Below are positions 7,466 through 31,698 of a DNA stretch of 40,806 nucleotides, piece after piece. Source of the DNA: Candidatus Iainarchaeum sp. (GTDB lineage: Archaea > Iainarchaeota > Iainarchaeia > Iainarchaeales > JAZDDZ01); the NCBI GenBank assembly GCA_043809245.1, contig JAZDDZ010000016.1, positions 1-40,806 on the forward strand. The letters are read 5' to 3'. Every line of letters starts with the position of its first letter. The stretch's first letter is position 1. The notes beneath the pieces were generated by a model. That model searched no databases. It was given only the letters and a program-made list of their open reading frames with translations, and was not told the DNA's origin. The translations under genes and the position numbers were made by a program.

Positions 7466-9391
7466 ATGGAAGTGATTGCAGTGGCTAGTGAAAAGATTCA
7501 GCTGACTTTTCCTGATGGCGCAAAAAAAGAGTTCAAAAAGGGCATCACAGGCATTGAGGTTGCGAAAAGCATTGGGAGAAGGCTGGCTGAGGATGCGTTA
7601 GCGGTTAAGTTGAATGGAAAGCAAAAGGACTTGAGTGCTTTGCTGAATGAAGGCGGCAGCTTTGAAGTTTTGACCTGGAATTCAAAGGAAGGGAAAAGCG
7701 TTTTCTGGCACAGCGCTTCGCATTTAATGACACAGGCAGTGTTAAGGGTATTCAAAGGCCAGAATATTGGTTTGGGCGTTGGCACTGCAATAGATGATGG
7801 TTTTTACCAGGATTATGATTTAAAAGAACTGCATCCCGAGGACCTGGAAAAAATTGAGAAAGAAATGCAAAAAATTGTGAATGAAAAATTAAGGGTAACC
7901 CAAAGGGATGTTCCAAAAAAAGACGCGCTCAACTTCTACAAAAAAGACCCCTACAAAACCGAGCTGGTTAACGCGGTTGCCGGGGAAAAAGTCAGCATGT
8001 ACAGCCAGGGCGAATTTGACAACTTATGCAAGGGGCCGCATGTTCCAAACATGGATTATATCAGCGCATTTAAATTAACAAAAATTGCAGGGGCGTATTG
8101 GAGGGGGGACTCAAAAAATAAAATGCTTACAAGGATTTACGGAATCGCTTTCCCTGAAAAAAAATTGCTTGACGCGTGGCTGCACTTGATTGAAGAGGCG
8201 GATAAAAGAAACCATTTGAAGCTGGGAAAAGAGATGGATTTGTTTTCAATGCAGCCCGAGGCCCCTGGATGCGTGTTCATGCACCCAAAGGGAATGGTTA
8301 TCTGGAATGATTTGATTGATTTTTGGAGGCAGGAGCACTTCAGGCGCGGTTACTCGGAAATAAGCACGCCCCTGATTTTGAAAAAGGATTTGTGGATTAG
8401 GTCAGGGCACTGGGACCATTACCGCAACAACATGTATTTCACGAAAATAGATGAAGAGGATTTTGCGGTCAAGCCAATGAACTGCCCTGGGGGAATGCTT
8501 GTGTATAAAACGAAGAGGCACAGTTACCGCGAGCTGCCGATAAGGATGGCTGAGCTTGGCACAGTCCACAGGCATGAATTATCCGGGGTGCTTAACGGAT
8601 TGTTCCGCGTGAGAAAATTCACGCAGGATGACGCGCATATTTTCTGCACTCCCGAACAGGTTGAAAAAGAGGTCATGGGCGTGATTGAATTGATTGACTT
8701 CATTTACAGGGCAATTGGGTTCAGGGATTACAATGTTGAATTGAGCACCAGGCCCGAGAAGGCAATGGGTTCACTGGAGCAGTGGAATAAAGCGGAGAGC
8801 GCGTTAAAGCATGCGCTTGAGGGAAAGGGAATCAAGTACAAAATCAATCCGGGTGACGGAGCGTTTTACGGTCCCAAAATAGATTTCCACGTTAAGGACG
8901 CTTTGGGGAGAACCTGGCAGTGCGCGACAATCCAGCTGGATTTCCAGATGCCTGAAAAATTCGGCTTAAAGTACATCGGCGCTGATGACAACGAGCATGT
9001 GCCTGCAATGATTCACCGCGTTATATTCGGCTCAATTGAGAGGCTCATTGGCATATTGATTGAGCATTTTGGCGGAAAATTTCCATTATGGCTTGCGCCG
9101 GTTCAGGTTAAGGTAGTCCCGGTAAGCGAAAAATTCAACGCTTTTGCGGCAAAGGTTTTGGCGCAGCTGAGGGAAAAAGGGATTAGGGCTGAATTGGATG
9201 AAAGGAATGAAACTGTTTCACACAAGATAAGGGACGCACAACTGGAAAAAGTGCCGCTGATTGCTGTTGCAGGGGAAAAAGAGCAGAAAGATGGAACGGT
9301 TAACGTTAGGGATCGCGAGGGAAAGCAAAGGGAACTGAAGCTGGATGAATTCGTTGCGGACTTGCTGAAAAAAATCAGGGAAAAGGCTTAG
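7466..9391 (+). CDS. thrS: Threonine--tRNA ligase (bacterial-type, TGS plus N2 editing domain)
   Basis: TGS-like N-terminus (LTFPDG), WHSASH and LCKGPH editing motifs, KPMNCP, FTQDDAH, GAFYGPKID, IHRVIFGSIER. Start may be GTG 7481. Confidence 0.97.
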   Translation: MEVIAVASEKIQLTFPDGAKKEFKKGITGIEVAKSIGRRLAEDALAVKLNGKQKDLSALLNEGGSFEVLTWNSKEGKSVFWHSASHLMTQAVLRVFKGQNIGLGVGTAIDDGFYQDYDLKELHPEDLEKIEKEMQKIVNEKLRVTQRDVPKKDALNFYKKDPYKTELVNAVAGEKVSMYSQGEFDNLCKGPHVPNMDYISAFKLTKIAGAYWRGDSKNKMLTRIYGIAFPEKKLLDAWLHLIEEADKRNHLKLGKEMDLFSMQPEAPGCVFMHPKGMVIWNDLIDFWRQEHFRRGYSEISTPLILKKDLWIRSGHWDHYRNNMYFTKIDEEDFAVKPMNCPGGMLVYKTKRHSYRELPIRMAELGTVHRHELSGVLNGLFRVRKFTQDDAHIFCTPEQVEKEVMGVIELIDFIYRAIGFRDYNVELSTRPEKAMGSLEQWNKAESALKHALEGKGIKYKINPGDGAFYGPKIDFHVKDALGRTWQCATIQLDFQMPEKFGLKYIGADDNEHVPAMIHRVIFGSIERLIGILIEHFGGKFPLWLAPVQVKVVPVSEKFNAFAAKVLAQLREKGIRAELDERNETVSHKIRDAQLEKVPLIAVAGEKEQKDGTVNVRDREGKQRELKLDEFVADLLKKIREKA

Positions 9392-9460: not shown

Positions 9461-12400
9461 ATGGGTGACCCTCTAGCCGAGTTAATGAACAAGCTCAAGA
9501 AAGAGAAGGGCTTTGCTGTCAAGGAAGAGCCGAAGGCAGGGCCTAAAAAAGAGGAGAAAAAGGGCGCTGAAGGCAAGGAACGCATAAGGAAACAGCTTGA
9601 AATGGATTTGAAAAAATTAAAGGAAAGCGAGAAAAAGGGAGCAGAGCAAAAACCGCAGAAAAAAGAGGGGAACGAGAAACCGTTTAAGGAACCGGTTTGG
9701 GAAAAAACCGAAACAAGGAAAGACGCGGAAGAGCCACCCATAAAGGAGTTGCTTGCCGAAAAATTCGCTGAAAAAAAAGAAGAGCCAAAGGAGGATTTGG
9801 GATTCAGGGTTTTTGAAAGGAAGGACTTTAAGCAGAATGCGGGGGCAAAGGAAAAAGCAAAAGAGCCTTTTTTTGCAAATGATGTGGGCGCAGGGGAACT
9901 GATTCCCCCTGAGCCAAAGGAACTGGCTGCAAGGCTTGTTGAAGCCGGCGCAATTCCCAAAGAACCGGTTGTTGCAGTTCCTGAAAAATCCGAGGCAGAG
10001 GTTGAGCTTGACAAGTCGAAAAAAACCGAAATAGAATCTTATGGCGATACGAAGATTTACAGCCTTCCTGGAAAGCCAATGCTTTACTATTTCACGCCTG
10101 TGCCAAGGCCAACAGCTGCTGAAAAGGGAATAATCAACACAATAAAGGAGGCTGCAACGAGAATCATTTCAATTGCACCCTACAAGATAAGGGACCCGGA
10201 GCAGAGAAGGAACACTTATTACCAGAAGGTAATGGAGATACTGCAGGCAACGCCGGAACTTAACATTCCCCAGAGAAGATACCAGTTTTATGCCGACGCA
10301 GTCATAAGGGAAATGGTTGGCTATGGAATGATTGATTCGCTGATAAAGGACGACAGGCTTGAGGAAATAATGATTATCGGCCCCACTGCCCCGGTTTATG
10401 TTTTTCACAGGCAGCATGAAATGATGGTTACAAACATTGAATTCTATTCCGACAGCGAAATACAGGACCTAATAAACAAGGTTGCAAGGCAGGTTGGCAG
10501 GCGCGTGGACATTTCAAGCCCGTTGCTTGATGCAAGGCTTCCTGATGGAAGCAGGGTCAATGCAACCATTCCCCCTGCATCTGTTATTGGCTCAACGCTC
10601 ACCATAAGGAAGTTCAGGAAAGACCCTTACTCCATAATTGACCTCATAAAGCTCAACACTGTTGACGCTGATGTTGCGGCATTCATGTGGCTTTGCGCTG
10701 ACGGAATTGGCGTCAACCCCGCGAACATATTGATTGCCGGTGGCACTGGTTCAGGCAAAACAACGACATTGAATATTCTTGCCTCATTTATCCCGGAAAG
10801 GGAAAGGATTATTTCAATTGAGGACAGCGTGGATGGGGATGAAGAAGTGTTTGTTTTTAACAAAAACAAACCCAAAAAAATAAAAATCAAGGAGCTTGTG
10901 GATAAAAAAATAATTGAAAACGGGTGCAGTTATTCAGGCGGAGGCCATGAAATAAGCCAAAATTTTGAAGACCTTGAAACAATCTGTTTTGATGAAAGTG
11001 GAAAAATAAAAAGGGCGGTAATCGGTTCATTTATCAGGCACAAAACGAATAAAAAAATGTATGAAATTATTTTCAGAAGCGGGAGAAAAATAAAAGTCAC
11101 GGAAGACCACTCGCTTTTTACCATTAATGGCGAAGCAAAAATTTGCCCGGTTAAGACAGGCGAATTAAAAGCGGGGCACTTTTTGGCGGTTCCTAGAAAG
11201 CTTTCTTTTGACTGTGAAGGTGTAAAGGAAATGAACCTGGTTGGCCACCTTGACAGGCTAAAAGGCCTTTTTGTGGTTGGGGAACCTATTTCAAATGGGT
11301 TGAGAAAAATAAACCGGTCTTTGCTTGAAAAATATTGCGGGGGAAAAACAGCACAGGGAAGAAAATGCTCTGCAAACTATTGGAAGAGAAAGGGGCTGCT
11401 GCCTGCAGCTGTATTGGATAGCCTGCGCAGAAAAGGCCTCATCGACTTAAGTGAAAACAGCGGCATTTTCTTTAAGACAAAGGTTAACTCAAAAAAGATT
11501 CCTGCAACCGTGAAGCTGGACAAGGCGTTCCTGGAATTCATCGGATTCTGGATAGCGGATGGATGCTATGACAAGAACAGCGTTATCCTCTCAACACAAG
11601 ACAAGGAGGTCATTCCGCTGATAAAAGAAGTTGCTGAAAGGTTTAATGCCAATGTTACGATGCATTCCGATGAATTCAGTTGGATGGTTAATTCAAGCAT
11701 ACTAAAAAAAGTAATGGTCCATGCATTGGGGCTTTATGGAAACGCATATACAAAAAAAATCCCTGATTGGGCCAATGAATTAAGCGACAGGCAGGTTTGC
11801 TGGCTTTTAAGGGGATATTTTTCCGGGGACGGCACGTCCGGAAAACACGAAATTGAATGGACTTCATGCTCAGAACAATTGATGAAAGACATCCAAACAA
11901 TGCTGCTGAGAAACGGAATAACGGCAAGAATTGCAACAAAAAGATTTAGAAAAGACAAATCCTTCAAAGGCAGGATATCCTCCCGCCCAAATGTTCCGGA
12001 ATTCATGGAAAAAATTGCATTCCTTCAGGATGAAAAAAACGAGAAAGCAATGAAAATTTTATTAAATGGCGAGGCTACCCACGACATTACTGACCTGATA
12101 CCATTGCCTGCAAGCTTTCTTAAGCGCCAAAGGCACGAGCTTAAGCTCCAGCACGAATACTATTCAGGGCGCTCAATGCTTGGAAGAAGGTTTCTCAACA
12201 AAGTGGTGTCATTCACTGAAAACAACGAATTGGAATTACTTGCCAACTCAGACATATTTTGGGACGAAATTAAAAAAATAAAGCGGGTTCCGCAAAAAGA
12301 AAGATTCGTTTACGATTTTTCAGTGCCGGGCTATGAGAATTTTGTATGCTCAAATGTTTTTGTGCATAACACAGCAGAATTGAACCTTCCATTAAAGCAC

Positions 12401-13003
12401 TGGATCAGGCTTGAGGCAAGGCCGCCTGGATTGGAGGGTTCTGGGGAGATAACGCTTGACATTCTGACAAAGAACTCGCTGAGAATGCGCCCGGACAGGA
12501 TAATTGTGGGAGAGGTAAGGCATGATGAGGCATTCACGCTTTTCACTGCAATGAACACAGGCCACAAGGGAAGCATGGGAACCGTGCACTCAAACAGCGC
12601 GCAGGAAACAGTTGTAAGGATTACAAGCCCGCCTATGAGCGTGCCTGTGATAATGATGAGCGGCCTTGACATTGTATTGGTGCAGAACAGGATTCACGAC
12701 AAGAAAAAAGGGACAATCAGAAGGGTGACGGAGATAGCGGAAGTCACTGGTGCGCTTGAAGGCCATGCAAGCGCGCAGACAATTTACAATTGGGACCCTG
12801 TAACAGACACATTAAAGCAGACAAATGTCCAGTCAAATTACCTGAAGGAAATTGAAAGGTTCACTGGAATGAACAGAAAGCAGATTGCCACGGAGTTATC
12901 GGAAAGGGCAAAGTTCCTGAAAAAGCTTTTGGATAAAAATATAAGGAGAATAGATCTTGTTTCAGCGGAATGCCATAAGTTCCTGCTGGAAAGAAAGGGG
13001 TAA
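9461..13003 (+). CDS. Type II/IV secretion (CpaF/TadA/VirB11-family) pilus ATPase containing an intein
   Basis: DARLPDGSRVNA, LTIRKF, Walker A GGTGSGKTT, IED|TAEL Asp box split by the intein, LRMRPDRIIVGEVR, TGHxGxxGTVH; Lys/Glu-rich N-terminal extension of about 190 aa. Confidence 0.95.
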   Translation: MGDPLAELMNKLKKEKGFAVKEEPKAGPKKEEKKGAEGKERIRKQLEMDLKKLKESEKKGAEQKPQKKEGNEKPFKEPVWEKTETRKDAEEPPIKELLAEKFAEKKEEPKEDLGFRVFERKDFKQNAGAKEKAKEPFFANDVGAGELIPPEPKELAARLVEAGAIPKEPVVAVPEKSEAEVELDKSKKTEIESYGDTKIYSLPGKPMLYYFTPVPRPTAAEKGIINTIKEAATRIISIAPYKIRDPEQRRNTYYQKVMEILQATPELNIPQRRYQFYADAVIREMVGYGMIDSLIKDDRLEEIMIIGPTAPVYVFHRQHEMMVTNIEFYSDSEIQDLINKVARQVGRRVDISSPLLDARLPDGSRVNATIPPASVIGSTLTIRKFRKDPYSIIDLIKLNTVDADVAAFMWLCADGIGVNPANILIAGGTGSGKTTTLNILASFIPERERIISIEDSVDGDEEVFVFNKNKPKKIKIKELVDKKIIENGCSYSGGGHEISQNFEDLETICFDESGKIKRAVIGSFIRHKTNKKMYEIIFRSGRKIKVTEDHSLFTINGEAKICPVKTGELKAGHFLAVPRKLSFDCEGVKEMNLVGHLDRLKGLFVVGEPISNGLRKINRSLLEKYCGGKTAQGRKCSANYWKRKGLLPAAVLDSLRRKGLIDLSENSGIFFKTKVNSKKIPATVKLDKAFLEFIGFWIADGCYDKNSVILSTQDKEVIPLIKEVAERFNANVTMHSDEFSWMVNSSILKKVMVHALGLYGNAYTKKIPDWANELSDRQVCWLLRGYFSGDGTSGKHEIEWTSCSEQLMKDIQTMLLRNGITARIATKRFRKDKSFKGRISSRPNVPEFMEKIAFLQDEKNEKAMKILLNGEATHDITDLIPLPASFLKRQRHELKLQHEYYSGRSMLGRRFLNKVVSFTENNELELLANSDIFWDEIKKIKRVPQKERFVYDFSVPGYENFVCSNVFVHNTAELNLPLKHWIRLEARPPGLEGSGEITLDILTKNSLRMRPDRIIVGEVRHDEAFTLFTAMNTGHKGSMGTVHSNSAQETVVRITSPPMSVPVIMMSGLDIVLVQNRIHDKKKGTIRRVTEIAEVTGALEGHASAQTIYNWDPVTDTLKQTNVQSNYLKEIERFTGMNRKQIATELSERAKFLKKLLDKNIRRIDLVSAECHKFLLERKG
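10826..12370 (+). mobile_element. Intein (515 aa) with LAGLIDADG (DOD) homing endonuclease
   Basis: Begins with Ser (SVDGDEEV) and ends VHN followed by Thr+1. Block B TEDHSLF, block F VYDFSV..ENFV, endonuclease motifs FIGFWIADG and LLRGYFSGDG. Removal restores IED-TAEL, matching IEDTLEL in the paralog at 33519-35072. Confidence 0.95.
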
Positions 13004-13005
13004 AA

Positions 13006-14154
13006 ATGCCGGGAATACAGGACCTGAGGAAAAAAATCGAGGAAAAAAAAGCCGCAGAATCCGAAGGCTTGAAGACCGCTAAAGACCAGCCGGCAGAATC
13101 CATTGACCTTGACCAGGTTGAAAAAATTGTCGCAAGAATGAAGAAAAAATACAGCCAGGAAGGAATGGAATTCGAGGAAGTAGGCGGAAAGCTAAAGGAA
13201 TTAAGGGGAATTATCACAAGCGGCGAATACCAAAAAGTCGAAGTTCAGGGCCCGGAGGAACTTATAGCGTTCAGGTCGCCTGCAATCAAATCACTTGGCC
13301 AGGTTTACATCACGCTCCAAAGCATTTTAAAGCCAGTCTCGGAAATGCTGCGAAAAATCCCCATAACAAAAAAGCTTGACTGGAGCCTTTACAGCGCAAA
13401 CATGAAGTACTCTGTGCAGCAATGGCTTGCATTGACTGCAGCAGTCGCATTCATCGCCTTTGTCGCAGGCGCAATCATATCCCTTGCAGTTGTTTTGCTG
13501 TTAAAGCTTGCATTATGGATCGTTCCGCTTGTGGCAATCCTTTTCCTGCTTTTTGGCGCAGCAATGATGCTTATCGTTCCATACAATAATGCGAAAAAAC
13601 GCGGAGACCAGTGCAGCATTGAACTGCCTTTCGCGTTAAGGCACATGGCAACAGAGCTCAAGGCAGGCATAGGGCTTTACAAAACCCTGCAGGTCATTGC
13701 GGCATCGGATTACGGGGTGCTGAGCGAGGAGTTTGCGCGCACAATAAGCGAAATAGAGGAAGGCACTGATGCAAAGGACGCACTTCACCACTTTGCTTTA
13801 AGGACCTATTCAAAGGCCTTAAGGGATTCGCTTTTCCATATGATTCGCGCAATGAAAACAGGCGGAAGCCTTTCAACCATAATGAATTCCATTGCCGAAG
13901 ACGTTTCATTTGAATTAAGGATGAACATAAGGGATTTCGGGGAAAAAATGAACTTCTTCGGGGTAATCTATATTTTTGCAGCAATAGTTGTGCCTGTGTT
14001 TGTCGGAATAATTGGCGGGGTTACAAACGCGCCGCTTGGAATAGGGATAATGACTCTGCCGCCGATGATGATATTGCTTTTTTACACTATAATGATGCCG
14101 TTAATAATGGTTTTGCTGACATTCTACCTTTACGCAAGCCAGCCGAAAATATAG
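13006..14154 (+). CDS. Type II secretion system F / TadC-like pilus platform protein
   Basis: TM helices plus ELPFALRHMATELKAG, YGVLSEEF and KTGG motifs; follows the ATPase by 2 nt. Confidence 0.9.
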   Translation: MPGIQDLRKKIEEKKAAESEGLKTAKDQPAESIDLDQVEKIVARMKKKYSQEGMEFEEVGGKLKELRGIITSGEYQKVEVQGPEELIAFRSPAIKSLGQVYITLQSILKPVSEMLRKIPITKKLDWSLYSANMKYSVQQWLALTAAVAFIAFVAGAIISLAVVLLLKLALWIVPLVAILFLLFGAAMMLIVPYNNAKKRGDQCSIELPFALRHMATELKAGIGLYKTLQVIAASDYGVLSEEFARTISEIEEGTDAKDALHHFALRTYSKALRDSLFHMIRAMKTGGSLSTIMNSIAEDVSFELRMNIRDFGEKMNFFGVIYIFAAIVVPVFVGIIGGVTNAPLGIGIMTLPPMMILLFYTIMMPLIMVLLTFYLYASQPKI

Positions 14155-15090
14155 GTGAAAAAAATGATTGAATACAGAAAATACCTGAAGGCAGCCAACC
14201 TTAAAGTTTCCCCTGCGGCATGGATTGGAATGGCTGTAATAGTTTCATTGGTTGTCGGCACCTTTGTCTATCTTTTAAGCTCGGACTTCCTTGCAAGGGA
14301 CGGAAACATTATTTTAAGCGCGGTTTTCTCGCTTGCAATAGCAGACCTCATTGTAGGTTTCCCTTACCTGCTTGCTTCAAGGAGAATCGACGAAATAGAG
14401 GACGCGTTGCCAGACGCACTTAAACAAATGGCTGACACGCTTAAATCAGGCGGAACATACGAGTACGCATTGCGCGAAGTTGCAACAGCTGAATACGGTG
14501 CCCTTAAGGACGAGATGGCAAATGTATTAACGAAACTGGAGGAAGGGGAAAACTTTGAAACCGCATTAACCACGCTCTCAGATAATATTGATTCAAGAAT
14601 AGTGAAAAGGACAGTTACAATAATCGTGGACTCTGTACGCGCGGGAGCAGGCCTTGCGGACATACTTGAAGACATAGCAGAGGATGTAAGGGCAATCCAC
14701 AGGATAAACAGGGAAAGGAAAAGCCGCACGCTCATGCAGGCTGCATTCATGTTCACCGCAGGGGGAATAGTTGCACCCGCAATTTTTGGCTTCGTTGACA
14801 CAATCATTAAAGTGCTTACAACTGCTGCAAGGGGTGTCGGGTCAGCGGAAATAGCAGCAAGGATTCCGCTTGCAATTGACGCTGCAAGCAAAATAAACCT
14901 TGGAATACAGATTTTCATTGTGGCTCAGGCAGCAATCACAAGCGTGATGATTTCATTGATGCGCGAAGGAAAGCCAAGCAAAAGCATTATATACTTCCCA
15001 TTGCTTTTATTTATAGCGTACTCCGTGTACCTGGTTGCACAGGTCGTATCGGTTTGGCTCATTGGAAGCACAGGGGGCATGGCATTATGA
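14155..15090 (+). CDS. Second type II secretion system F / TadC-like protein
   Basis: LPDALKQMADTLKSG, YGALKDEM, RAGAGLADIL; multiple TM helices. Confidence 0.9.
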   Translation: MKKMIEYRKYLKAANLKVSPAAWIGMAVIVSLVVGTFVYLLSSDFLARDGNIILSAVFSLAIADLIVGFPYLLASRRIDEIEDALPDALKQMADTLKSGGTYEYALREVATAEYGALKDEMANVLTKLEEGENFETALTTLSDNIDSRIVKRTVTIIVDSVRAGAGLADILEDIAEDVRAIHRINRERKSRTLMQAAFMFTAGGIVAPAIFGFVDTIIKVLTTAARGVGSAEIAARIPLAIDAASKINLGIQIFIVAQAAITSVMISLMREGKPSKSIIYFPLLLFIAYSVYLVAQVVSVWLIGSTGGMAL

Positions 15091-15254
15091 AAAAATTGTT
15101 GGCTGAAAAAAAAGCGCAGACATCAATTGAAATGCTCCTTATTCTGGGGGCGGCAGTAGTAGTGGCAACCACGGTAGGCCTGCTGTTCAAGCAACTCACG
15201 CAGGAAAACATCTCGCCGGCAGTGCACGGCGCAATAAACGGCGCATTGCAGTAG
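15087..15254 (+). CDS. Small pilin with class III signal peptide (55 aa)
   Basis: ATGA overlap with the upstream stop; MKKLLAEKKA|QTSIEMLLILGAAVVVATTVGLLF. Confidence 0.85.
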   Translation: MKKLLAEKKAQTSIEMLLILGAAVVVATTVGLLFKQLTQENISPAVHGAINGALQ

Positions 15255-15264
15255 GAAGGCAAAA

Positions 15265-15302
15265 TTTAAATATAAGTTAAATGTTATAAGATAAAAGGAG
15301 GT
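15265..15302 (+). promoter_or_regulatory. Internal TATA box and strong ribosome-binding site for the putative major pilin
   Basis: A-rich BRE-like stretch, TTTAAATATAA at 15265-15275, and AGGAGGT at 15296-15302, 7 nt before ATG 15310. Confidence 0.7.
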
Positions 15303-15309
15303 AACTGAA

Positions 15310-15471
15310 ATGGACAATAAAGCACAAGGAGCACTGGAATACCTGTTACTGATAGGCGGAGCAGTTGTAGTGGCGGTTATAGTCATAACATTCATGATCA
15401 GCCTAAGCGGAAACAGCACGGGCCAAATCGGTAATGCAACAAATAACGCACTACAGCATATAGTAGTATAA
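15310..15471 (+). CDS. Small pilin, probable major pilin (53 aa; below ORF-track cutoff)
   Basis: Manual translation MDNKA|QGALEYLLLIGGAVVVAVIVITFMISLSGNSTGQIGNATNNALQHIVV*. Confidence 0.88.
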   Translation: MDNKAQGALEYLLLIGGAVVVAVIVITFMISLSGNSTGQIGNATNNALQHIVV

Positions 15472-15487
15472 TAAATCGGCGAATAAT

Positions 15488-15658
15488 ATGGACTCCAAGG
15501 CGCAGGTTTCATTTGAGTACTTGTTAACGGTGGGCTTCGCGATAATCCTCGTGATTGCCGCGATGGTCCTCACCCTTAACTTAACGGCTATTGCTGACAG
15601 CGCCCAGGCAAAAATATTGCAGTACAGGGATTCAACAATAGGCTCTTTGATGGGCTGA
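15488..15658 (+). CDS. Small pilin (56 aa; below ORF-track cutoff)
   Basis: Manual translation MDSKA|QVSFEYLLTVGFAIILVIAAMVLTLNLTAIADSAQAKILQYRDSTIGSLMG*. Confidence 0.85.
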   Translation: MDSKAQVSFEYLLTVGFAIILVIAAMVLTLNLTAIADSAQAKILQYRDSTIGSLMG

Positions 15659-15664
15659 TGGCCC

Positions 15665-16690
15665 ATGCTGCAATCCCTCCTGTTTCTTGTTTCTTTAATC
15701 GCATTAGCCATAGCCACTTACACTGATTTAAGGGAAAGGATTGTATCAGACAAACTGACCTATGGCCTGATTGCGTTCGGGATAATTGTTGCTGCAATAG
15801 AATCAATTCAGGCAAACGATGCGGGAATAATTGCGTTAGTGCTTGCGGTTACAGCAGGAACGTTTTTCTGCAGCTATCTTTTGTGGAAAATGGGGGTATG
15901 GGCTGGAGGCGATGTAAAGCTTTTCACAGGAATCGCGGCATTGAACCCGGTGAACTACGCCGCGATTGGCGCGTTTTTTGGCTTTGGAAAAGGGCTGCTT
16001 GCGCCAATAGCTTTTCCCCTTTTTCCATTGTCGCTTTTCATTTTCTCGGTTTTCTCAATGCTCCCATACAGTGCAATCATTTCCTTAAACGGAATAATGA
16101 AAAAGGAATCATTGCGGAAGATTTTTTTCAGCGGAATCAAAAGCGATTTGCTGAATGTTCTGCTGCTTGGAATCGCGGCAACCGCCATAATAAAGGGGCC
16201 GGAATTTTTTGCGGCTGAAAGCTTTCCGCTGCAGGAAGCGGTTTTCTCATTCATTGCATTTCTGTTTGCGGCTTTCTTTTTTTACTTTGTTGTCAAGCTC
16301 TGGATTAACTCGAAAAGCGCTTTAAGGAAAGAGGTAAGCGTGAATGAACTGCAGGAGGGAATGATTCCCGCTGAAACAATCGTTGAAATCAATGGCATGA
16401 TTGAAAAACCAGAGCAAATCAGCCTAGGAAAAATTATTAAACTGGTAAAGGATAATAATTTAGGCGCACTCAATGAATTAGTGCAGCCAAAGGGAAGGAT
16501 TCTGGCTGATGCAAGGAGCGCCGCAGGATTGACGCAGGAACAGGTGGATGAATTGAAGGGGTTAAGCGCGGGAAAAAAAATAGGCGAAACAATGACAGTC
16601 AAGGAATCAGCGCCATTCGTGCCCGCAGTGCTAATCGCCTACATTCTGCTGCAGATAGTTGGAGACATTTTGTGGAACGTGGTGCTATGA
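15665..16690 (+). CDS. Prepilin peptidase, A24 family (EppA/FlaK-like)
   Basis: TYTDLRER and WAGGDVK aspartyl motifs, many TM helices, C-terminal LQEGMIP...APFVP domain; lies among QxSxE-type pilins. Confidence 0.9.
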   Translation: MLQSLLFLVSLIALAIATYTDLRERIVSDKLTYGLIAFGIIVAAIESIQANDAGIIALVLAVTAGTFFCSYLLWKMGVWAGGDVKLFTGIAALNPVNYAAIGAFFGFGKGLLAPIAFPLFPLSLFIFSVFSMLPYSAIISLNGIMKKESLRKIFFSGIKSDLLNVLLLGIAATAIIKGPEFFAAESFPLQEAVFSFIAFLFAAFFFYFVVKLWINSKSALRKEVSVNELQEGMIPAETIVEINGMIEKPEQISLGKIIKLVKDNNLGALNELVQPKGRILADARSAAGLTQEQVDELKGLSAGKKIGETMTVKESAPFVPAVLIAYILLQIVGDILWNVVL

Positions 16691-17142
16691 AAAAAGGGCA
16701 GGTCACGGTTGAATTCCTTTTGCTTTTGCTTGTAATGCTTTTGTACGTGCAGACAATAATCCAGCCAAACATTCAGATAACCGCGGCTGCGGCACAGGAT
16801 GTCTCAAATGTCGGCAGGGGCGTTGCGGAACTGCAGAAATTTTATAACGCGGTGCTTGATGTCAGCAATTCAGGCGGTGACGCGAAAAGAACCGCGACAT
16901 TGTTCATTCCGCCTGAAACTACTTTCACATGCAGCGACAGCTCGGCAAAAGTTGAAATACTGCTGAGCGATACACTTAGCAGCTATCCTGTAAGCTCGCT
17001 TTCATGCAATTCGGGAACAAATGCCTGCACCAAGGAAATTTCTTTAACCAGCCTAGGGGTCATCTGCAGTGAAAGCATTACAGGGCCGGTTGCGAAATCG
17101 CTGAAAATTGAAAAAACCGGCAACACGGTGAATGTTTCGTGA
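16687..17142 (+). CDS. Minor pilin-like protein, class III signal peptide
   Basis: ATG 16687 overlaps the peptidase stop; MKKG|QVTVEFLLLLL. Confidence 0.85.
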   Translation: MKKGQVTVEFLLLLLVMLLYVQTIIQPNIQITAAAAQDVSNVGRGVAELQKFYNAVLDVSNSGGDAKRTATLFIPPETTFTCSDSSAKVEILLSDTLSSYPVSSLSCNSGTNACTKEISLTSLGVICSESITGPVAKSLKIEKTGNTVNVS

Positions 17143-17522
17143 ACAAGAAAGGCCAAAGCGCTTTTGAAGTCGCATTCCTGCTTGGGGTGCTGCTTATTTT
17201 GGTGATGGTTTCCGCTGGCAGATACCTTTCAATACAGGACCAGAACACGGCAATGGTTTACACTAAATTAAAGGCACTTGAAAACCTTGAGGCAGAAAAT
17301 TCTTTTTATTACCTGAAATCAATCGATGTGGCGGAGGACAGTGGTGCGCTTAAGCTGTCCATTAACACGCAGCCGGCAACAAAGCCAAATGGCTCTCCCC
17401 TAGGGTTTTCATCGCCTTCACTTGATGAAATTGCCAAAGAAATAAAGTGCAGGACAGACTATTCGACAGTGATAGTGTCACTTAACGGAACAGAAACCGC
17501 AACTTACAATGGTGCCTGTTGA
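17139..17522 (+). CDS. Minor pilin-like protein, class III signal peptide
   Basis: GTGA overlap; MNKKG|QSAFEVAFLLGVLL. Confidence 0.85.
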   Translation: MNKKGQSAFEVAFLLGVLLILVMVSAGRYLSIQDQNTAMVYTKLKALENLEAENSFYYLKSIDVAEDSGALKLSINTQPATKPNGSPLGFSSPSLDEIAKEIKCRTDYSTVIVSLNGTETATYNGAC

Positions 17523-18102
17523 AGGTGTTTTTTTGCTCAAGGCTTTTTTGGAGAAAAAGTTCAAGGACTTTGACGAGCGCAGCTATGTGCTGATAAAGCT
17601 CCAGGTGCTGATTGTCGCAATGCTTTTGGCGCTTTTTTTGCGCGGCGCAAGCTTTTATGCATTCATTGCATTGGAGGGAATTCTTGCCGCATACTACCTG
17701 TTTGAAATTTTTGTGGAACTCCGGAAACTTGAGAAAGAAGATTTCGGGAAGTACGCGCTGTTCTTCATTGGCTTGTTCCTTTTCATTCAAGGAGCCTGGC
17801 TTCCGTTTGTTTTTGTTGGCGGCTTCCGGCAGGTTTTTGCGCTCGGCATTTCGGAAATAATCGGGCTGCTGCTTTTCACAGTGCTTTTCAGATTGCTCCT
17901 CGGAAGAAATTACACTTATGGAAAAGTGGTTTCAAGCGATGGAAAGATAGCGGTGGTTGAAACCAATTATGACCTGCTGGCTTTCACGCAGAAAGGCAGA
18001 TTTGTAGTGGATTCCGCTGGAAAAATTGAACCCGGGAAAAAGGTCAAGGTTGCGGTTAAAAGCTTTTTTTTGGCAAGAAAGCCCTACAAAATAGCAGAAT
18101 GA
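17509..18102 (+). CDS. DUF2101-like membrane protein (pilus-associated)
   Basis: Four TM helices followed by GRNYTYGKVV...YDL...GKKVKV.V...KP, a pattern I recognise from DUF2101. Confidence 0.65.
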   Translation: MVPVEGVFLLKAFLEKKFKDFDERSYVLIKLQVLIVAMLLALFLRGASFYAFIALEGILAAYYLFEIFVELRKLEKEDFGKYALFFIGLFLFIQGAWLPFVFVGGFRQVFALGISEIIGLLLFTVLFRLLLGRNYTYGKVVSSDGKIAVVETNYDLLAFTQKGRFVVDSAGKIEPGKKVKVAVKSFFLARKPYKIAE

Positions 18103-18156
18103 ATAGTTCGTTGATTGACGAATATATTCTTATTTGTTTTTCTGCCTGTTTTAGTA

Positions 18157-18519
18157 ATGCTTCTTGATGATTTCACTGCAAGAAAAATCGCTTTATGCAT
18201 TTCTTTGGCGGGAATTGCATTAATCCTTTTTCTAAGCACAACTGTAAAGCCAATTGAAGTGAAGGTTTCTGAAATCAATGAATCGCTTGAAAACAAAAGA
18301 ATTGCAACAAGCGGAATAATCCAGAACCTGGCAAAAACAGATAAAGCGGTTTTTTTCTCCCTGGTTGACGGAAAAAAAATCAGGGCAGTTATTTTCTCGC
18401 CGAAAAAAGAGGCAATGGAGGTCATTGATGAAAACAGGCTTGTGAAAGTCAAGGGCGCTGTCGCGAAATACAGGGGCGCGCTTGAAATAATTGTGGAAAA
18501 AGTGATTCCGATTGATTGA
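18157..18519 (+). CDS. Membrane-anchored OB-fold nucleic-acid-binding protein
   Basis: N-terminal hydrophobic helix (IALCISLAGIALILFL), then an OB-like pattern ISEI...IATSGII...FFSLVDG...VKVKGAVAKYRGALEIIVEKV. Start is ATG 18157 or TTG 18115. Confidence 0.75.
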   Translation: MLLDDFTARKIALCISLAGIALILFLSTTVKPIEVKVSEINESLENKRIATSGIIQNLAKTDKAVFFSLVDGKKIRAVIFSPKKEAMEVIDENRLVKVKGAVAKYRGALEIIVEKVIPID

Positions 18520-19711
18520 ACTGTTCTTATGGATTGCTGCTGGATGCGTGCTTGGAGTTTTCACTGGCCTGACTCCAGGCATCCACCTGAACACAATGGC
18601 ATTGTTTGTGGTTTTTTTTGCTGAGAAAGGGAACTTTCCCGCAGTGCTGCTGATTGTTGCGATGAGCGTAATGCATTCATTTATGGATTTCATTCCAAGC
18701 GTTTTTCTAGGGGCGCCAAGCGAAAAATATGAAAATGAGCGCCTGCTCCCAGGACATAAGCTGCTGCTCAAAGGCGAGGGGTTAAAGGCAGTGAAAATTT
18801 ACTCGCTCGGGGGATTGTTCGGCATAATTTGCGCGCTATTGCTCGTGCCTGCCTTGGCAGCCGTGTCATTGAAGTGGTTTGAATTTATTTACGCCGCAAT
18901 TCCTTTCCTGCTGCTTTCATTGATTGCCTTGATGGTTTTTTCAGAGAAAGGCGCGAACAGGAAAATCTGGGCTTTGGCGGTTGTTGGGCTTTCCGGTGTG
19001 CTTGGGTTCATTGCATTGAAAAACACTTCAACCGAGAACGCGCTGTTTGCCTTGATTTCGGGTTTTTTCGGCGCGGCAACAATCGCATATTCCTTCAAAA
19101 AAAATCCGCAGATAAAAAGGCAGAAAAAATGCAGCGGAAAATATCCTGCGGGAAAGGTTTTAAGGGCAAGCCTTGCGGGAGCTGTTGCAGGAAGCCTTGT
19201 CTCCCTTTTTCCAAGCATCAGCTCAAGCCAGGCCGCGTTTGTTGCAGTTAAGTTTTTGAAAAAAATTTCAACAAAAAGCTATATCGTTTTGCTTGGCGCG
19301 ATAAATTCAAGCAACATGTTTTTCGGGTTCTTAGTGCTTTTCCTGCTCGGCAAGGCAAGGAACGGCGCGGTTGTCGCGGTAAAGCAGATAATTGAAGTTA
19401 ACGCGGAGCAGCTGCTGCTAATCATCGCAACAGTTCTTTTCTGCTCAGGCATTGCGGCAATCGCCTCGGAATTTTTTGCGGAAAAATTCGCTGAAAAAAT
19501 CGCGGGCTTTGATTACAGGAAGGTGAACCTTGCCGTGCTTTTATTCCTTGCTTTTTTCGTTATGTTTCTCGCGGGATTGAACGGCCTGCTGCTGTTTGTA
19601 ACCTCTTCCGCGCTTGGAATTGTCGCATTGACTTCTAATGTGAAGCGAAGCCACTGCCTTGCTTTCCTGATGGCGCCGACAATTGCATTCTATCTGCATT
19701 TGGGCTTTTGA
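18512..19711 (+). CDS. TctA/DUF112-family polytopic membrane protein
   Basis: GVFTGLTPGIHLN, HSFMDFIPSVFLGAP, LLPGH, ARNG; about 12 TM helices; overlaps the upstream OB-fold gene. Confidence 0.85.
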   Translation: MIELFLWIAAGCVLGVFTGLTPGIHLNTMALFVVFFAEKGNFPAVLLIVAMSVMHSFMDFIPSVFLGAPSEKYENERLLPGHKLLLKGEGLKAVKIYSLGGLFGIICALLLVPALAAVSLKWFEFIYAAIPFLLLSLIALMVFSEKGANRKIWALAVVGLSGVLGFIALKNTSTENALFALISGFFGAATIAYSFKKNPQIKRQKKCSGKYPAGKVLRASLAGAVAGSLVSLFPSISSSQAAFVAVKFLKKISTKSYIVLLGAINSSNMFFGFLVLFLLGKARNGAVVAVKQIIEVNAEQLLLIIATVLFCSGIAAIASEFFAEKFAEKIAGFDYRKVNLAVLLFLAFFVMFLAGLNGLLLFVTSSALGIVALTSNVKRSHCLAFLMAPTIAFYLHLGF

Positions 19712-20112
19712 TGCCCCTTTTATTTTTTTCCGGGCAGCAATTAATCGTGTTAATCAAGAAAAACCTGCTGCTTGACTTGCTTGAGGCTGCAAAAAACACT
19801 TTTCCCGACGAGTTTTTCGCATTGCTTGCGGTAAAGGAAAAAAATGGCACAATAGAGGAATTTGTCGTTGTTCCCGCGGTTTACGGAAAAGCCCACACGC
19901 TTTTTCGCTCGGACTTGATTCCATTTGACAAAAAAATCGTTGGCTCAATGCACTCGCATCCCTCGCCAAACGCATTTCCATCTGAAGCCGACCTTCAGGC
20001 ATTCAGGCGTTTGGGGCAAATACATTTAATTGTTGCAGCGCCATTTAATTTAGGCTCGATAAGGGTTTTTGACGGAAAAGGGAAGAGAACGCAGTTAACG
20101 GTGGTTGATTGA
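19708..20112 (+). CDS. JAB/MPN (Mov34, JAMM) metalloprotease
   Basis: PDE (catalytic Glu) and GSMHSHPSPNAFPSEAD JAMM motif. True start may be a few codons downstream. Confidence 0.88.
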   Translation: MMPLLFFSGQQLIVLIKKNLLLDLLEAAKNTFPDEFFALLAVKEKNGTIEEFVVVPAVYGKAHTLFRSDLIPFDKKIVGSMHSHPSPNAFPSEADLQAFRRLGQIHLIVAAPFNLGSIRVFDGKGKRTQLTVVD

Positions 20113-21317
20113 ATAAAAAAATAATTTTCATTGTGTGCGATGGCCTTGGCGACAGGCCTGTGAATTCGCTTGGCGGGAAAACGCCGCTCGAGGCAGCCAA
20201 AACACCAAACCTTGATTTGCTTGCTGAAAAGGGAATCACTGGATTGATTGATGTAATCGACAAAAGCATTTACCCTGATTCGGATATAGCGCACCTCGCG
20301 CTCTTTGGTTTAACGCCGGAGCAAAGCAAAATTGAACGCGGCCCAATCGAGGCACTCGGCATAGGCATGGATTTGGGAAAAGAAGATGTTGCATTCCGGT
20401 GCAATTTTGCAACAGTGAATGAGAAAATGGAGATAATTGACAGGCGTGCGGGAAGAATTGACGGAACTGAACCATTGGTAAAGGCACTGAATGGCATTGA
20501 AGTGCAGGGAATTAAATTTCTTGCGGCAAAGGGAACAGGGCATCGCCTTATTCTTGTTATGAAAGGAAAGGGGCTTTCGGGAAATGTTTCCTCAAATGAC
20601 CCGAAAGCCATTGGGGTGAAAAGCCCTGAAGTTAAGGCGCTTGATGCATCTGATGAAGCAAATCTATCTGCAGGCGCATTGAATGAATTCCTTGCAAAAG
20701 CTCGCGAAATCCTTTCAGCGCACCCGTTCAACAAAAAAAGGGAAATGAAAGGGCTTTTGCCAGCGAACTATCTTCTCTGCAGGCACGGCGGAAAAATTGC
20801 ATTGATTCCTTCAATGAAGCAAAGGTTTGGAGTTAATTCCGCTTGCATTGCGGGTGCGGGATTGTATAAAGGAATCGGAAGGCTTTTGGGGATGCGGTTA
20901 ATTGAAGTGAAGGGCGCAACAGGCCTGCCTGATTCGGATTTGAATGCAAAAATTTTTACGGCAATCAAGGCGCTCAAGGAATTTGACTTCGTTTTCGTTC
21001 ACATTAAGGCTGCTGACAGCCTTGGCGAGGACGGAAACGCGGAGGGAAAGAAAAAATTCATTGAAAAAATCGACAAGGCAATGGCGCCACTGGTTTCGCT
21101 CAAGGGCTCGCTTGTGGTTGTCACTGCAGACCACTGCACTCCATGCGAATTGAAAAAGCACTCAAGCGACCCTGTTCCTGTGCTTGTTTCATGCGAGGGG
21201 GCAGAGGCAAATGGAGTGAAACGTTTCTCAGAAAAGGATTGCTCAAAGGGAAGCCTCGGGAGAATTAGGGGAATTGAACTGATGCCTCTGCTAATGCGCC
21301 TCGCAAGCAAAAGGTAG
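20109..21317 (+). CDS. apgM: 2,3-bisphosphoglycerate-independent phosphoglycerate mutase
   Basis: DGLGD, KTPLEAAKTPNLD, AFRCNF, DRRAGRI, HIKAAD, TADHCTP, HSSDPVP. Confidence 0.93.
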   Translation: MNKKIIFIVCDGLGDRPVNSLGGKTPLEAAKTPNLDLLAEKGITGLIDVIDKSIYPDSDIAHLALFGLTPEQSKIERGPIEALGIGMDLGKEDVAFRCNFATVNEKMEIIDRRAGRIDGTEPLVKALNGIEVQGIKFLAAKGTGHRLILVMKGKGLSGNVSSNDPKAIGVKSPEVKALDASDEANLSAGALNEFLAKAREILSAHPFNKKREMKGLLPANYLLCRHGGKIALIPSMKQRFGVNSACIAGAGLYKGIGRLLGMRLIEVKGATGLPDSDLNAKIFTAIKALKEFDFVFVHIKAADSLGEDGNAEGKKKFIEKIDKAMAPLVSLKGSLVVVTADHCTPCELKKHSSDPVPVLVSCEGAEANGVKRFSEKDCSKGSLGRIRGIELMPLLMRLASKR

Positions 21318-21356: not shown

Positions 21357-21791
21357 ATGAAAGCGATTGGAAGAAAAGGGCAGCTGAGCTTTGACCTGTT
21401 CTTTGCAGTGATTGTTGTTGCAATCGTTGCACAGGTTTTCACGGCATACACACTTGACATTGCGGGCAGCCAGCAGGTCATTTCCATTAAAAGCCAGGAA
21501 AAACAAATTGCAATGGATTTGAAGGCATTGCTTGAATCCACAAAAGCGTTAAGCGACGGAACTTATAGCATTGAGTATACTCCTGAAAAGATTCACGCAA
21601 TCGGGACAAAGAACCGGATTAACTGCACTATCGACATAGCTGGTTCGCCGCCAACAATAACTGTCTCAGCCCCTGAGGAGTTTGGCGGCACTTCAACCGC
21701 TGTTGAACTGACTGCACTCCCCGCTGGAACAACTTTCTCCCCGACTCTGCCAGCGCCGTGCAGCCAAAAGCTTACAATAAGCAAACCCTGA
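21357..21791 (+). CDS. Pilin-like protein, class III signal peptide
   Basis: RKG|QLSFDLFFAVIVV; TTTAAATATAA box upstream at 21319-21329. Confidence 0.8.
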   Translation: MKAIGRKGQLSFDLFFAVIVVAIVAQVFTAYTLDIAGSQQVISIKSQEKQIAMDLKALLESTKALSDGTYSIEYTPEKIHAIGTKNRINCTIDIAGSPPTITVSAPEEFGGTSTAVELTALPAGTTFSPTLPAPCSQKLTISKP

Positions 21792-21809
21792 CATTTGTTG
21801 TGATAAAGC

Positions 21810-22373
21810 ATGAATGGAAAAGAAAAAGGCCAGATTTTTTCATTGGACTTCATTCTCTCAATGGTTTTGGTGATGCTTGCATTGGGCCTGATGTTCCAGT
21901 TCATGGAGGCAAACGCATACAGCTTCAAAAAAGCCGAACTGGACGAAGAGCTTAACGCGGTAGGGGAAACCGCGGCGTATTTGCTTGTGACGAATCCTGC
22001 AATCACCTGTGATTTGGTTGATGCTTCCGATTTAAAAATTGGCGAGCTTAACAACTGCCTTGCAAGAAACAATAACCTGCAGATAACCGGTGAAAAACTC
22101 GGATTGCCGACTTCGTTCAATTATTGCCTAACCAGCGATGGTGTGCCGGGAGACTCCATTCATCCCTCATCATACACTGACTGCACAGCCTCAAGCCTGC
22201 CTCCAAGCGGCGTAAAAGATGTTTTTTCAGCAAAAAGGAAAATAATAGTGTACAAGCCCAACGGCGAAAACAAGGATTCATTTCCAAAAAGTGAACTGCT
22301 TGACTGCCGGATAAATAGGAACTGCCAGAAAATTTATTTCAGGACATTAACTTTAAAGGTGTGGCGCTCATGA
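21810..22373 (+). CDS. Pilin-like protein, class III signal peptide
   Basis: EKG|QIFSLDFILSMVLV; paired cysteines in the C-terminal domain. Confidence 0.8.
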   Translation: MNGKEKGQIFSLDFILSMVLVMLALGLMFQFMEANAYSFKKAELDEELNAVGETAAYLLVTNPAITCDLVDASDLKIGELNNCLARNNNLQITGEKLGLPTSFNYCLTSDGVPGDSIHPSSYTDCTASSLPPSGVKDVFSAKRKIIVYKPNGENKDSFPKSELLDCRINRNCQKIYFRTLTLKVWRS

Positions 22374-22699
22374 AAAAAAAAGGCTTTGTTTTCACTATTG
22401 ACTCCATTGCCGCAATTGGCGCTGTAATCATCCTGATGGGCGCTTATCTTTTTTTCACGCAGTCAGCGCAAGGAGGATTGACTGCAAAAAGCACTGTGGA
22501 TGCCGATACATTTGATGCCTCAATGGTTGGCTTTTATCTGGACAAGGAAGCGAGCGAGTTTTCCCCGCTAACGGATTCGCCAAGCGCATTCTCGGCAAAC
22601 AAATTCGGCTACTGCAGCTTTAGAATTGATTATCCGCTCAACACCAACACAAGCCAATCGGCTTTTTCATTTATAAAATACTGCGGGGGCTCGGGATGA
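22370..22699 (+). CDS. Pilin-like protein, class III signal peptide
   Basis: ATGA overlap; MKKKG|FVFTIDSIAAIGAVIIL. Confidence 0.78.
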   Translation: MKKKGFVFTIDSIAAIGAVIILMGAYLFFTQSAQGGLTAKSTVDADTFDASMVGFYLDKEASEFSPLTDSPSAFSANKFGYCSFRIDYPLNTNTSQSAFSFIKYCGGSG

Positions 22700-23232
22700 A
22701 CGGAAAAGGCGTTTACACGGCAATAATCGCGGTAATTGCATTGGTTGTGCTTGCGTCTTTCGCTTACCAAGCGGTTAATTTGGTGAACGAGCAGAAAACA
22801 ATGGATTTGCCTAAAAAGGTTTACGAACTGAAAAGCGTTTGGCTAAAGGCAAAGTTCGCATTGGACAGCGCGACAGGCGACGCGGCATATGATGAAACAG
22901 CAGCGGGCTGCACTGAAAGCCTTTCAGCAGTTGTGCTTCAAAATTCATATTACCAAAAAGTAACAGACGCCATTAATGATTCCACTGGTTTCGAGTGCAG
23001 TGCACAACCAGTCTCTGTAAACCCTTTGGGTGGAGGCGAATACTCTGTATCGGCTACCCTGGACTGCAGGAAAACTTTTTCAGAAAACGAAATCAGCTAC
23101 AATAACACGGTTACTTTCGGAAAAATAATACAGAAGTTTGAAAACCCCCCTGGCATATGCAATGTGAACATAGTGGATACGCAGGCGGATTACTGTGAAA
23201 TAAGGGAATTCGATGGCGATCCTCCCTGCTGA
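22696..23232 (+). CDS. Pilin-like protein, class III-like signal peptide
   Basis: ATGA overlap; MNGKG|VYTAIIAVIALVVL; six cysteines. Confidence 0.72.
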   Translation: MNGKGVYTAIIAVIALVVLASFAYQAVNLVNEQKTMDLPKKVYELKSVWLKAKFALDSATGDAAYDETAAGCTESLSAVVLQNSYYQKVTDAINDSTGFECSAQPVSVNPLGGGEYSVSATLDCRKTFSENEISYNNTVTFGKIIQKFENPPGICNVNIVDTQADYCEIREFDGDPPC

Positions 23233-31556: not shown

Positions 31557-31593
31557 GCTTTCACCCCAAATGAATAATAGTTAATTGTACTTA

Positions 31594-31683
31594 TATCAAA
31601 AGACAGTATATAGGGTAATTTTTAAATGTCTTTTGATAGCTATCAAAGGGCATTATTTGCAGCAGTATTTATGCCCTTTGATA
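31594..31683. repeat. Two tandem perfect inverted repeats built from a TATCAAARGRCA unit
   Basis: TATCAAAAGACA (31594-31605) pairs with TGTCTTTTGATA (31627-31638); TATCAAAGGGCAT (31641-31653) pairs with ATGCCCTTTGATA (31671-31683). Confidence 0.9.
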
Positions 31684-31698
31684 TTAAATGATTTAAAG

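Follow-up and report, generated by a model that had tools for sequence, protein, structure and literature searches.

Does an archaeal type IV pilus gene cluster that also holds a membrane-anchored OB-fold protein and a TctA-like permease encode a machine for DNA uptake? The question is raised by contig JAZDDZ010000016.1 of Candidatus Iainarchaeum sp. (assembly GCA_043809245.1), the whole 40,806-nt stretch that we analyzed and refer to as the window; it is contig C16 of a 55-contig, 1.48-Mb genome of 91.8% completeness (G000; the letters G, C and L below label genomes, contigs and loci). A metagenome-type assembly is all that represents this organism so far. An earlier reading made from the letters of the DNA (the sequence-only reading) had proposed that the OB and TctA-like proteins form a two-gene functional analogue of the bacterial DNA importer ComEC. 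We favor, at a probability of roughly 55%, the reading that the region is a DNA-uptake (competence) locus in which the OB/TctA-like pair acts at the membrane step. That it is a competence locus is probable, while its mechanism is still one that we infer: after processing by the EppA-like peptidase that the cluster itself encodes, the pilus would capture DNA, the OB domain would receive it at the membrane surface, and the TctA-like protein would be required for its passage into the cell. We adopt this reading because of the gene content and tight same-strand packing of the cluster, the pilin-like genes on both sides of OB-TctA-JAB, the genetics of two methanogens, the conservation within Iainarchaeales, the recurrence in Hydrothermarchaeota, the near-universal presence of the pair in the order, its place with just one of several pilus ATPase loci, the absence of ComEC, TctB and TctC, and the predicted outward-facing OB domain.

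The precedent is genetic. In Methanococcus maripaludis, the gene for a single-transmembrane (TM) OB protein, MMJJ_13020, and the adjacent TctA-like gene, MMJJ_13030, are each reported to be essential for natural transformation, a result backed by complementation of the two deletions (Fonseca et al. 2023, PMC10133366). The same paper describes a TctA homologue as essential for transformation in M. thermophilus, states that TctB, TctC and ComEC are lacking in archaea, and proposes the TctA-like protein as a possible DNA transporter replacing ComEC. A role of a TctA-family gene in methanogen transformation had been named in the sequence-only reading; the published result goes further, in that the OB gene is essential too. 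The pair in the window resembles the M. maripaludis pair in its two Pfam families, in the OB gene lying directly upstream of the TctA-like gene, in the single TM helix of the OB protein, in its archaeal host and in the lack of TctB and TctC; these are likenesses of family and layout. The two differ in placement, since locus tags and coordinates in a table of PMC10133366 put the M. maripaludis pair far from the epd and eppA loci, with MMJJ_13030 described as having 11 TM segments, whereas the window pair sits inside a pilus cluster together with DUF2101 and a JAMM protease. We infer that the two pairs are orthologous, that the OB domain binds DNA and, as a further and rather doubtful step, that the DNA passes through the TctA-like protein itself.

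The idea of the TctA-like protein as a ComEC substitute is already published (PMC10133366). Apparently new is that the transformation pair lies embedded in a pilus cluster of Epd-like type, that this arrangement is conserved in two distant archaeal phyla, and that DUF2101 recurs as a third partner. A search for literature linking TctA or the OB protein to pilus loci found none, its relevant matches being only the Fonseca paper and its preprint; of 179 further matches, the 10 listed dealt with CPR or other bacteria. The main texts of two pilus censuses (PMC4858521 and PMC13705601) contain 0 occurrences of TctA, OB-fold and DUF2101, although their supplements and figures, including a figure of DPANN loci, may show the arrangement.

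Gene identities were assigned with Pfam, and NCBIfam was searched too. Every gene that the sequence-only reading had placed in a same-strand run at 9461-20112 was confirmed at the same positions, all on the + strand (Table 1). Neighboring genes in this run mostly abut or overlap (overlaps of 4-14 nt), the exceptions being gaps of 55 nt between the first and second tiny pilins, 16 nt, 6 nt, and 54 nt between DUF2101 and the OB gene. The OB gene stands directly upstream of the TctA-like gene, which overlaps it by 8 nt. The end of the run at 20112 proved to be drawn too early: four further pilin-like genes follow at 21357-23232, downstream of the phosphoglycerate mutase gene ApgM, so that OB, TctA-like and JAB lie inside the pilus cluster. 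The cluster holds nine pilin-like genes overall, and the OB, TctA-like, JAB and ApgM genes are embedded among them rather than tacked on at the end. Each of the four downstream genes encodes, at the N-terminus, a basic residue, G, then Q, F or V, followed by a hydrophobic stretch, which is the pattern of the upstream pilins and is kept within the respective families. There is practically no chance that these are chance open reading frames (ORFs) or an annotation artefact, given the strong Pfam matches and the same-order homologues in dozens of genomes.

To judge from its genes, this is an Epd-like archaeal type IV pilus cluster, with two platform genes and tiny pilins. The Epd pilus of Methanococcus (archaeal T4F system 1) is described in PMC13705601 as having two separate platform-protein genes, and the window cluster resembles that system in its ATPase, its two platform genes, its several minor pilins, its very short pilins that lack a globular domain, and a candidate for a dedicated peptidase of EppA type. 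It departs from it in having all parts in one string, an intein in the ATPase, and the non-pilus genes DUF2101, OB, TctA, JAB and ApgM inside. The consensus start of the family of tiny pilin 1 is the ATG at 15087. Class_IIIsignal matches were obtained on two of the three tiny pilins, and a shared N-terminal motif on all three. The EppA-like peptidase matched the NCBIfam EppA equivalog with an E-value of 8.8e-13 but with 48 bits, far short of the cut-off of 450. The OB-TctA pair is tied to this one pilus system although the genome holds at least six T2SSE ATPase loci, along with two A24 peptidases (window positions 33519-35072 on the - strand and contigs C28, C7, C9 and C13 are among the sites).

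The neighborhood was compared across loci from three sources: the order itself, with 37 loci around TctA in 36 genomes; a scan of a genome collection, with 80 named loci; and the phylum of one Hydrothermarchaeota genome, with 20. Profiles were built on the first set, and all ORFs of the loci were scored. TctA ORFs shorter than 900 nt or weaker than 1e-20 were dropped before counting (L024 and L037, with in-frame stops), duplicate loci were counted once (L044=L014, L054=L023, L131=L059, L143=L090), and each count covers only the loci with enough flanking sequence. A FastTree phylogeny of 132 TctA rows separated 50 Iainarchaeales-type rows, including the window, from 82 others with 96% local support. 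Counts were made for three groups: the Iainarchaeales side (49 rows besides the window), the Hydrothermarchaeota clade (20 rows) and other DPANN archaea (59 rows, of Woese-, Nano-, Pace- and Aenigmatarchaeota type).

On the Iainarchaeales side, the OB gene is adjacent to TctA in 42/47 loci, with a pilin-like gene upstream in 32/42, EppA upstream in 28/37 and the ATPase or TadC upstream in 22/31. JAB follows TctA in 43/46, pilin-like genes lie downstream in 32/36, and DUF2101 stands beside OB-TctA in 13/45. The pair is nearly universal in the order, where a TctA match was found in 38/41 genomes; a TadC1 orthologue (E<=1e-50) was present in 39/41. Of the three genomes without a TctA match, two have contigs that break off within the operon, and in the third, G029, the syntenic position is occupied by a strongly divergent pair. 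The G029 pair (L150, G029:C1, 9908-11231), a TctA-like protein of 327 amino acids plus an OB protein, was found by the family profiles alone (E-values of 6e-5 and 1e-4), with no Pfam match, and may be decaying or fast-evolving.

A shorter version of the module, comprising EppA, pilins, DUF2101, OB and TctA, was found in Hydrothermarchaeota. In this clade OB adjoins TctA in all 17 loci counted, DUF2101 lies beside the pair in 10/11, and a pilin-like gene and EppA lie upstream in 6/10 and 5/7, respectively; the ATPase or TadC upstream (0/6), JAB downstream (0/17) and pilin-like genes downstream (0/1) were not seen. The genes between EppA and DUF2101 have class-III-like N-termini with KGQ or RGQ, and one locus (L143 of G041, the longer of two duplicates) has an ATPase gene and two TadC genes on the same strand some 14 kb upstream. 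In the TctA tree, the Hydrothermarchaeota clade nests among lineages without pilus linkage. This recurrence is a stronger argument than the synteny within Iainarchaeales. Taken together, these results support the published idea that the pair works with the pilus; how DNA crosses the membrane is not shown by them.

Table 1. Genes of the pilus cluster and its upstream neighbor in the window
Feature	Coordinates	Strand	Evidence and remarks
Threonyl-tRNA synthetase (ThrRS)	7466..9391	+	Pfam tRNA-synt_2b, HGTP_anticodon, tRNA_SAD, TGS; upstream neighbor outside the machine; synteny control
Pilus assembly ATPase (T2SSE/TadA/FlaI-like) with intein	9461..13003	+	Pfam T2SSE 3.1e-41
Platform protein 1 (TadC/T2SSF)	13006..14154	+	Pfam T2SSF 3.4e-19
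Platform protein 2 (TadC/T2SSF)	14155..15090	+	Pfam T2SSF 2.2e-17
Tiny pilin 1, 55 amino acids from ATG 15087	15087..15254	+	Pfam Class_IIIsignal 7e-6; ORF opens at 15054
Tiny pilin 2, 53 amino acids	15310..15471	+	Pfam Class_IIIsignal 1.6e-9
Tiny pilin 3, 56 amino acids	15488..15658	+	No Pfam match; KAQ motif and hydrophobic stretch, kept in 23 aligned sequences
EppA-like class III signal (prepilin) peptidase	15665..16690	+	Pfam Peptidase_A24 1.2e-12, Arc_PepC 7.6e-12
Minor pilin-like protein	16687..17142	+	KKGQ and hydrophobic N-terminus in 28 sequences; Class_IIIsignal 7.7e-5, just under cut-off
Minor pilin-like protein	17139..17522	+	KKGQ and hydrophobic N-terminus in 13 sequences
DUF2101 membrane protein	17509..18102	+	Pfam DUF2101 5.7e-11
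Single-TM membrane-anchored OB-fold protein, 120 amino acids	18157..18519	+	Pfam tRNA_anti-codon (PF01336) 9e-8, tRNA_anti_2 (PF13742) 6.7e-5
TctA-like permease, 399 amino acids	18512..19711	+	Pfam TctA (PF01970) 2.5e-40, full length
JAMM/JAB metalloprotease	19708..20112	+	Pfam Prok-JAB 5.7e-13
Archaeal-type phosphoglycerate mutase (ApgM), housekeeping gene	20109..21317	+	Pfam Metalloenzyme 2.9e-49, PhosphMutase 1.5e-42
Pilin-like protein	21357..21791	+	RKGQ-LSFDL N-terminus and hydrophobic stretch in 19 sequences; no Pfam match
Pilin-like protein	21810..22373	+	EKGQ-IFSLDF N-terminus and hydrophobic stretch in 28 sequences
Pilin-like protein	22361..22699	+	KKKG-FVFTID N-terminus and hydrophobic stretch in 8 sequences
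Pilin-like protein	22696..23232	+	NGKG-VYTAIIAV N-terminus and hydrophobic stretch in 10 sequences

The ComEC competence domain (PF03772), which was detected in 10/14 control genomes, had no match in this 91.8% complete genome, and neither had TctB (PF07331) or TctC (PF03401), for which the controls were positive. The lack of TctB and TctC, noted for the window by the sequence-only reading, holds for the whole 1.48-Mb genome. A SNase-type nuclease likewise gave no match in the genome, and no nuclease counterpart was found.

The start and architecture of the OB protein were taken from a family alignment of 93 sequences. It places the true start at 18157, where the gene had first been drawn; from there the protein runs through a short N-terminal segment and a single TM helix into the OB domain. 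Across these sequences the segment ahead of the TM helix carries a net charge of +0.5 and the segment behind it one of -1.7, which favors an N-in orientation with the domain outside; the OB domain is predicted to face outward, as the proposal of the sequence-only reading required. Its Pfam families, PF01336 and PF13742, are OB types that bind nucleic acids, and JGI names its relatives after YhcR, an OB-bearing nuclease. A single-sequence search with the OB protein returned itself alone. A profile of eight euryarchaeal and Aenigmatarchaeota OB proteins gave 125 matches, with no Methanococcus name among the 120 listed. The ESM Atlas holds archaeal OB clusters of about 120 amino acids from Iainarchaeota, Nanobdellota, Aenigmatarchaeota and Methanobacteriota, which serve as leads only.

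The TctA-like protein, encoded by a single copy in the genome, matched PF01970 with 138.8 bits against a gathering cut-off of 28.9, over profile positions 2-422 of 423, and its closest homologues bear the names Candidatus Diapherotrites/Iainarchaeum, which marks the genome as that of a DPANN archaeon of the Iainarchaeota. The TTT signature G-Hy3-G-Hy3-G-Hy2-P-G is kept at residues 11-23, and an alignment of 21 sequences shows little or no variation at G11, G15, G19, P22 and G23. Thus it shares with the bacterial TctABC/BctCBA systems the full-length TctA family and the glycine/proline signature motif. It differs from them in lacking TctB and TctC, in having a TM-anchored OB protein as its conserved partner, and in being shorter than BctA, the residues of which are numbered up to 507 in the preprint 10.64898/2026.07.27.740893. 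NCBIfam held no specific model matching the OB, TctA-like, DUF2101 or pilin-like genes.

The AlphaFold2 model of the TctA-like protein was confident (pLDDT 87.7). A sequence profile search of the PDB gave 0 matches at E<=1, and a Foldseek search of the model against the PDB gave none at E<=0.001. With VIA-align, the best match was the barley YS1 transporter, far above the others (Z 12.4, 251 residues aligned, rmsd 4.4), with the warning that helical proteins easily attain such Z values. The next matches were carriers of the ion-transporter superfamily, LaINDY (6.9), Pho90 (6.7), TRAP IseQM (6.2), YdaH (5.9) and ArsB (5.6), and this lower group of DASS, Pho90, TRAP, AbgT and ArsB carriers spans Z 5.5-6.9. 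The same preprint models TTT proteins as elevator-type carriers. The carrier-like fold and the TTT glycine/proline motif speak for a carrier of the elevator type and against a pore like that of ComEC. A complex prediction of the TctA-like and OB proteins with two alignments gave a score of 0.23 (mark 0.32), which is evidence neither way. As a side observation, the TctA matches of two genomes are interrupted: the one in G033 (G033:C1:491482-492654, L037) has six in-frame TAG codons, and the one in G032 (G032:C2:523739-524905, L024) has one TGA and one TAA in frame. Both could be pseudogenes, or, in the G033 case, TAG could be recoded.

Several of these observations, together with others, weigh against a competence locus. 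In its model, the TctA-like protein looks like a secondary solute carrier and not like a ComEC-like channel, and an elevator carrier would be an awkward route for a DNA polymer. The likeness to bacterial ComEC lies in the proposed role, with an outer-face OB domain and a polytopic membrane protein for DNA entry downstream of a type IV pilus; unlike ComEC, the pair shows no homology to it, has a carrier-like TTT/ion-transporter-superfamily fold, consists of two polypeptides, and has no fused or adjacent nuclease domain. The ComEC analogy of the sequence-only reading stands in part: the genome gave no ComEC match and the same idea has been published (PMC10133366), but the modeled fold is carrier-like rather than a pore. 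An OB-TctA fusion was not found, as 0 ORFs matched both profiles in 117 loci; open frames of 523-532 amino acids at TctA, considered as fusions, were rejected as upstream read-through in another frame. The OB ectodomain, moreover, is not generally basic; its charge is +4 here, with a mean of -2.0 and 59% of the 93 sequences net negative.

The neighborhood also holds points on this side. OB-TctA adjacency is widespread in archaea, and in other DPANN archaea it occurs in 32/52 loci, with no pilin-like gene upstream (0/48) or downstream (0/39), no EppA (0/40) and no ATPase or TadC (0/28) upstream, no DUF2101 beside the pair (0/50) and no JAB downstream (0/49). Conserved linkage of the pair to pili, on which the sequence-only reading had made its proposal depend, holds on the Iainarchaeales side and in Hydrothermarchaeota, but not in these lineages. 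Paired T2SSF genes were found elsewhere in 5/5 other DPANN genomes with the pair, which is weak evidence, pili being common. Within Iainarchaeales, 15/17 related loci with at least 1.5 kb of sequence available have ThrRS as the immediate upstream neighbor of the pilus ATPase, and the cluster retains a phosphoglycerate mutase, which in some genomes is of another enzyme type. Since these two genes are equally syntenic, gene order in this group is conserved beyond functional need. Further, G022 (L153/L003, G022:C1) reads ThrRS-EppA-OB-TctA-JAB, the ATPase, TadC, pilins and minor pilins being missing at the locus; this genome, 91% complete, has no orthologous TadC1 anywhere, its sole TadC match being at the level of a paralogue.

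An ordinary two-component secondary transporter for a small solute, with the tethered OB protein as its binding protein and a position in the cluster that is inherited order without functional meaning, would fit the synteny of ThrRS and phosphoglycerate mutase, the absence of the pilus linkage from most DPANN lineages, and the retained TTT motif and carrier-like fold. It would also fit the presence of the pair in nearly all genomes of the order, as expected of a housekeeping importer. We consider it rather unlikely, however: both genes are reported to be essential for transformation in M. maripaludis (PMC10133366), the EppA-pilins-DUF2101-OB-TctA module recurs in Hydrothermarchaeota, and neither TctB nor TctC is present.

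The same carrier fold and motifs would suit a role in the service of the pilus, in which the pair and DUF2101 contribute to pilus assembly, to anchoring, or to the import of small molecules for the pilus or its glycosylation; the transformation defect of the methanogen mutants would then be indirect, and DNA would enter by another route. In two distant lineages the pair stands amid minor-pilin genes, immediately following EppA and minor pilins, and the main text of PMC10133366, where we saw no report on the pili of the mutants, nowhere uses the words "piliated" or "electron microscopy". Against such a role, the pair persists in G022, which has no orthologue of the pilus platform gene, no pilus genes lie near the pair in the 48 other DPANN loci, and the OB domain belongs to nucleic-acid-binding families. 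We give it a low probability.

Compared with these, DNA uptake remains the reading that we prefer. The carrier-like fold of the model leaves two options: either a solute-carrier family has been converted to the passage of a polymer, or the pair acts indirectly. In the boldest version, which we regard as possible and far from established, a single operon would contain the whole DNA-import apparatus, made up of an Epd-like pilus, DUF2101, an outward-facing OB receptor and a TctA-derived carrier exapted from the transport of small solutes to that of ssDNA or oligonucleotides. If true, DNA importers would have been invented a second time, independently of ComEC, and this one would occur across DPANN and deep euryarchaeal lineages, where gene acquisition and nucleotide supply could both profit from it. 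The archaeal DNA-transporter candidate has so far rested on knockouts in two methanogens only, and the linkage of the pair to a pilus in two distant phyla gives the candidate pair independent comparative support. It also extends the candidate machinery to small-genome DPANN archaea and adds DUF2101 as a candidate component in both lineages, and the JAMM protease as a candidate in Iainarchaeales only.

DUF2101 is a single-copy gene in the genome. Its AlphaFold2 model (pLDDT 91.6) starts with a helix, continues with four long helices and ends in a beta domain of five strands, which we would guess to be an NfeD-like small barrel; VIA-align returned only generic helical-bundle matches to the model, over residues 21-132. 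In the JAB protein the JAMM motif E ... HxH ... S-x-x-D is intact, with E35, H82, H84, S92 and D95 invariant in 34/34 aligned sequences. A RadC-like reading of this protein was set aside, its E-value of 0.0049 falling short of the cut-off. The slot between JAB and the downstream pilins is always filled by a phosphoglycerate mutase. The window and many relatives have ApgM there, while others, for example L042:11527-13053, L044:11589-13088 and L062:11561-13075, have the bacterial iPGM (iPGM_N). To judge from the genes, one enzyme seems to have been replaced in situ by another that is not its orthologue.

The intein of the pilus ATPase comprises about 515 amino acids with a LAGLIDADG endonuclease domain and occupies residues ~457-972 (~10829-12376), just past the P-loop region. 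It was recognized by Pfam matches to Intein_splicing (1e-26) and LAGLIDADG_3 (5e-18), around which the T2SSE match falls into two stretches; the NCBIfam FlaI/TadA-like matches are split in the same way. The ATPase ORFs of relatives are either long (~3.1-3.3 kb in L002, L004, L015, L020, L047, L049, L062 and L151) or short (1.7-1.9 kb), indicating that the intein comes and goes. A second T2SSE gene of the genome (G000:C13:6783-8945), with an open frame of 1286 amino acids and a split match, suggests another intein there. At least six T2SSE loci amount to many filament systems for a DPANN genome of 1.48 Mb.

Outside Iainarchaeales, OB-TctA often lies beside housekeeping genes for information processing (L077, L081, L093, L118, L070 and L088), namely alanyl-, isoleucyl- and Trp/Tyr-type tRNA synthetases, the PolD large subunit and a proteasome-ATPase-like AAA protein. 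Bins labeled Falkowbacteria, Dehalococcoidales, Thermodesulfobacteriota and "Methanosarcinales" carry DPANN-type OB-TctA loci (L049, L050, L101, L056/L058/L072 and others); L049 has a full pilus cluster, and these loci nest among DPANN rows in the TctA tree. Bins with such bacterial or "Methanosarcinales" labels are probably mis-assigned. In the window itself, 5-13 kb downstream of the cluster and outside the conserved string, lie a Holliday-junction-resolvase-related endonuclease (27992-28357, - strand), a calcineurin-like phosphoesterase (31585-32367, + strand) and a LigT-type phosphoesterase (32984-33517, + strand).

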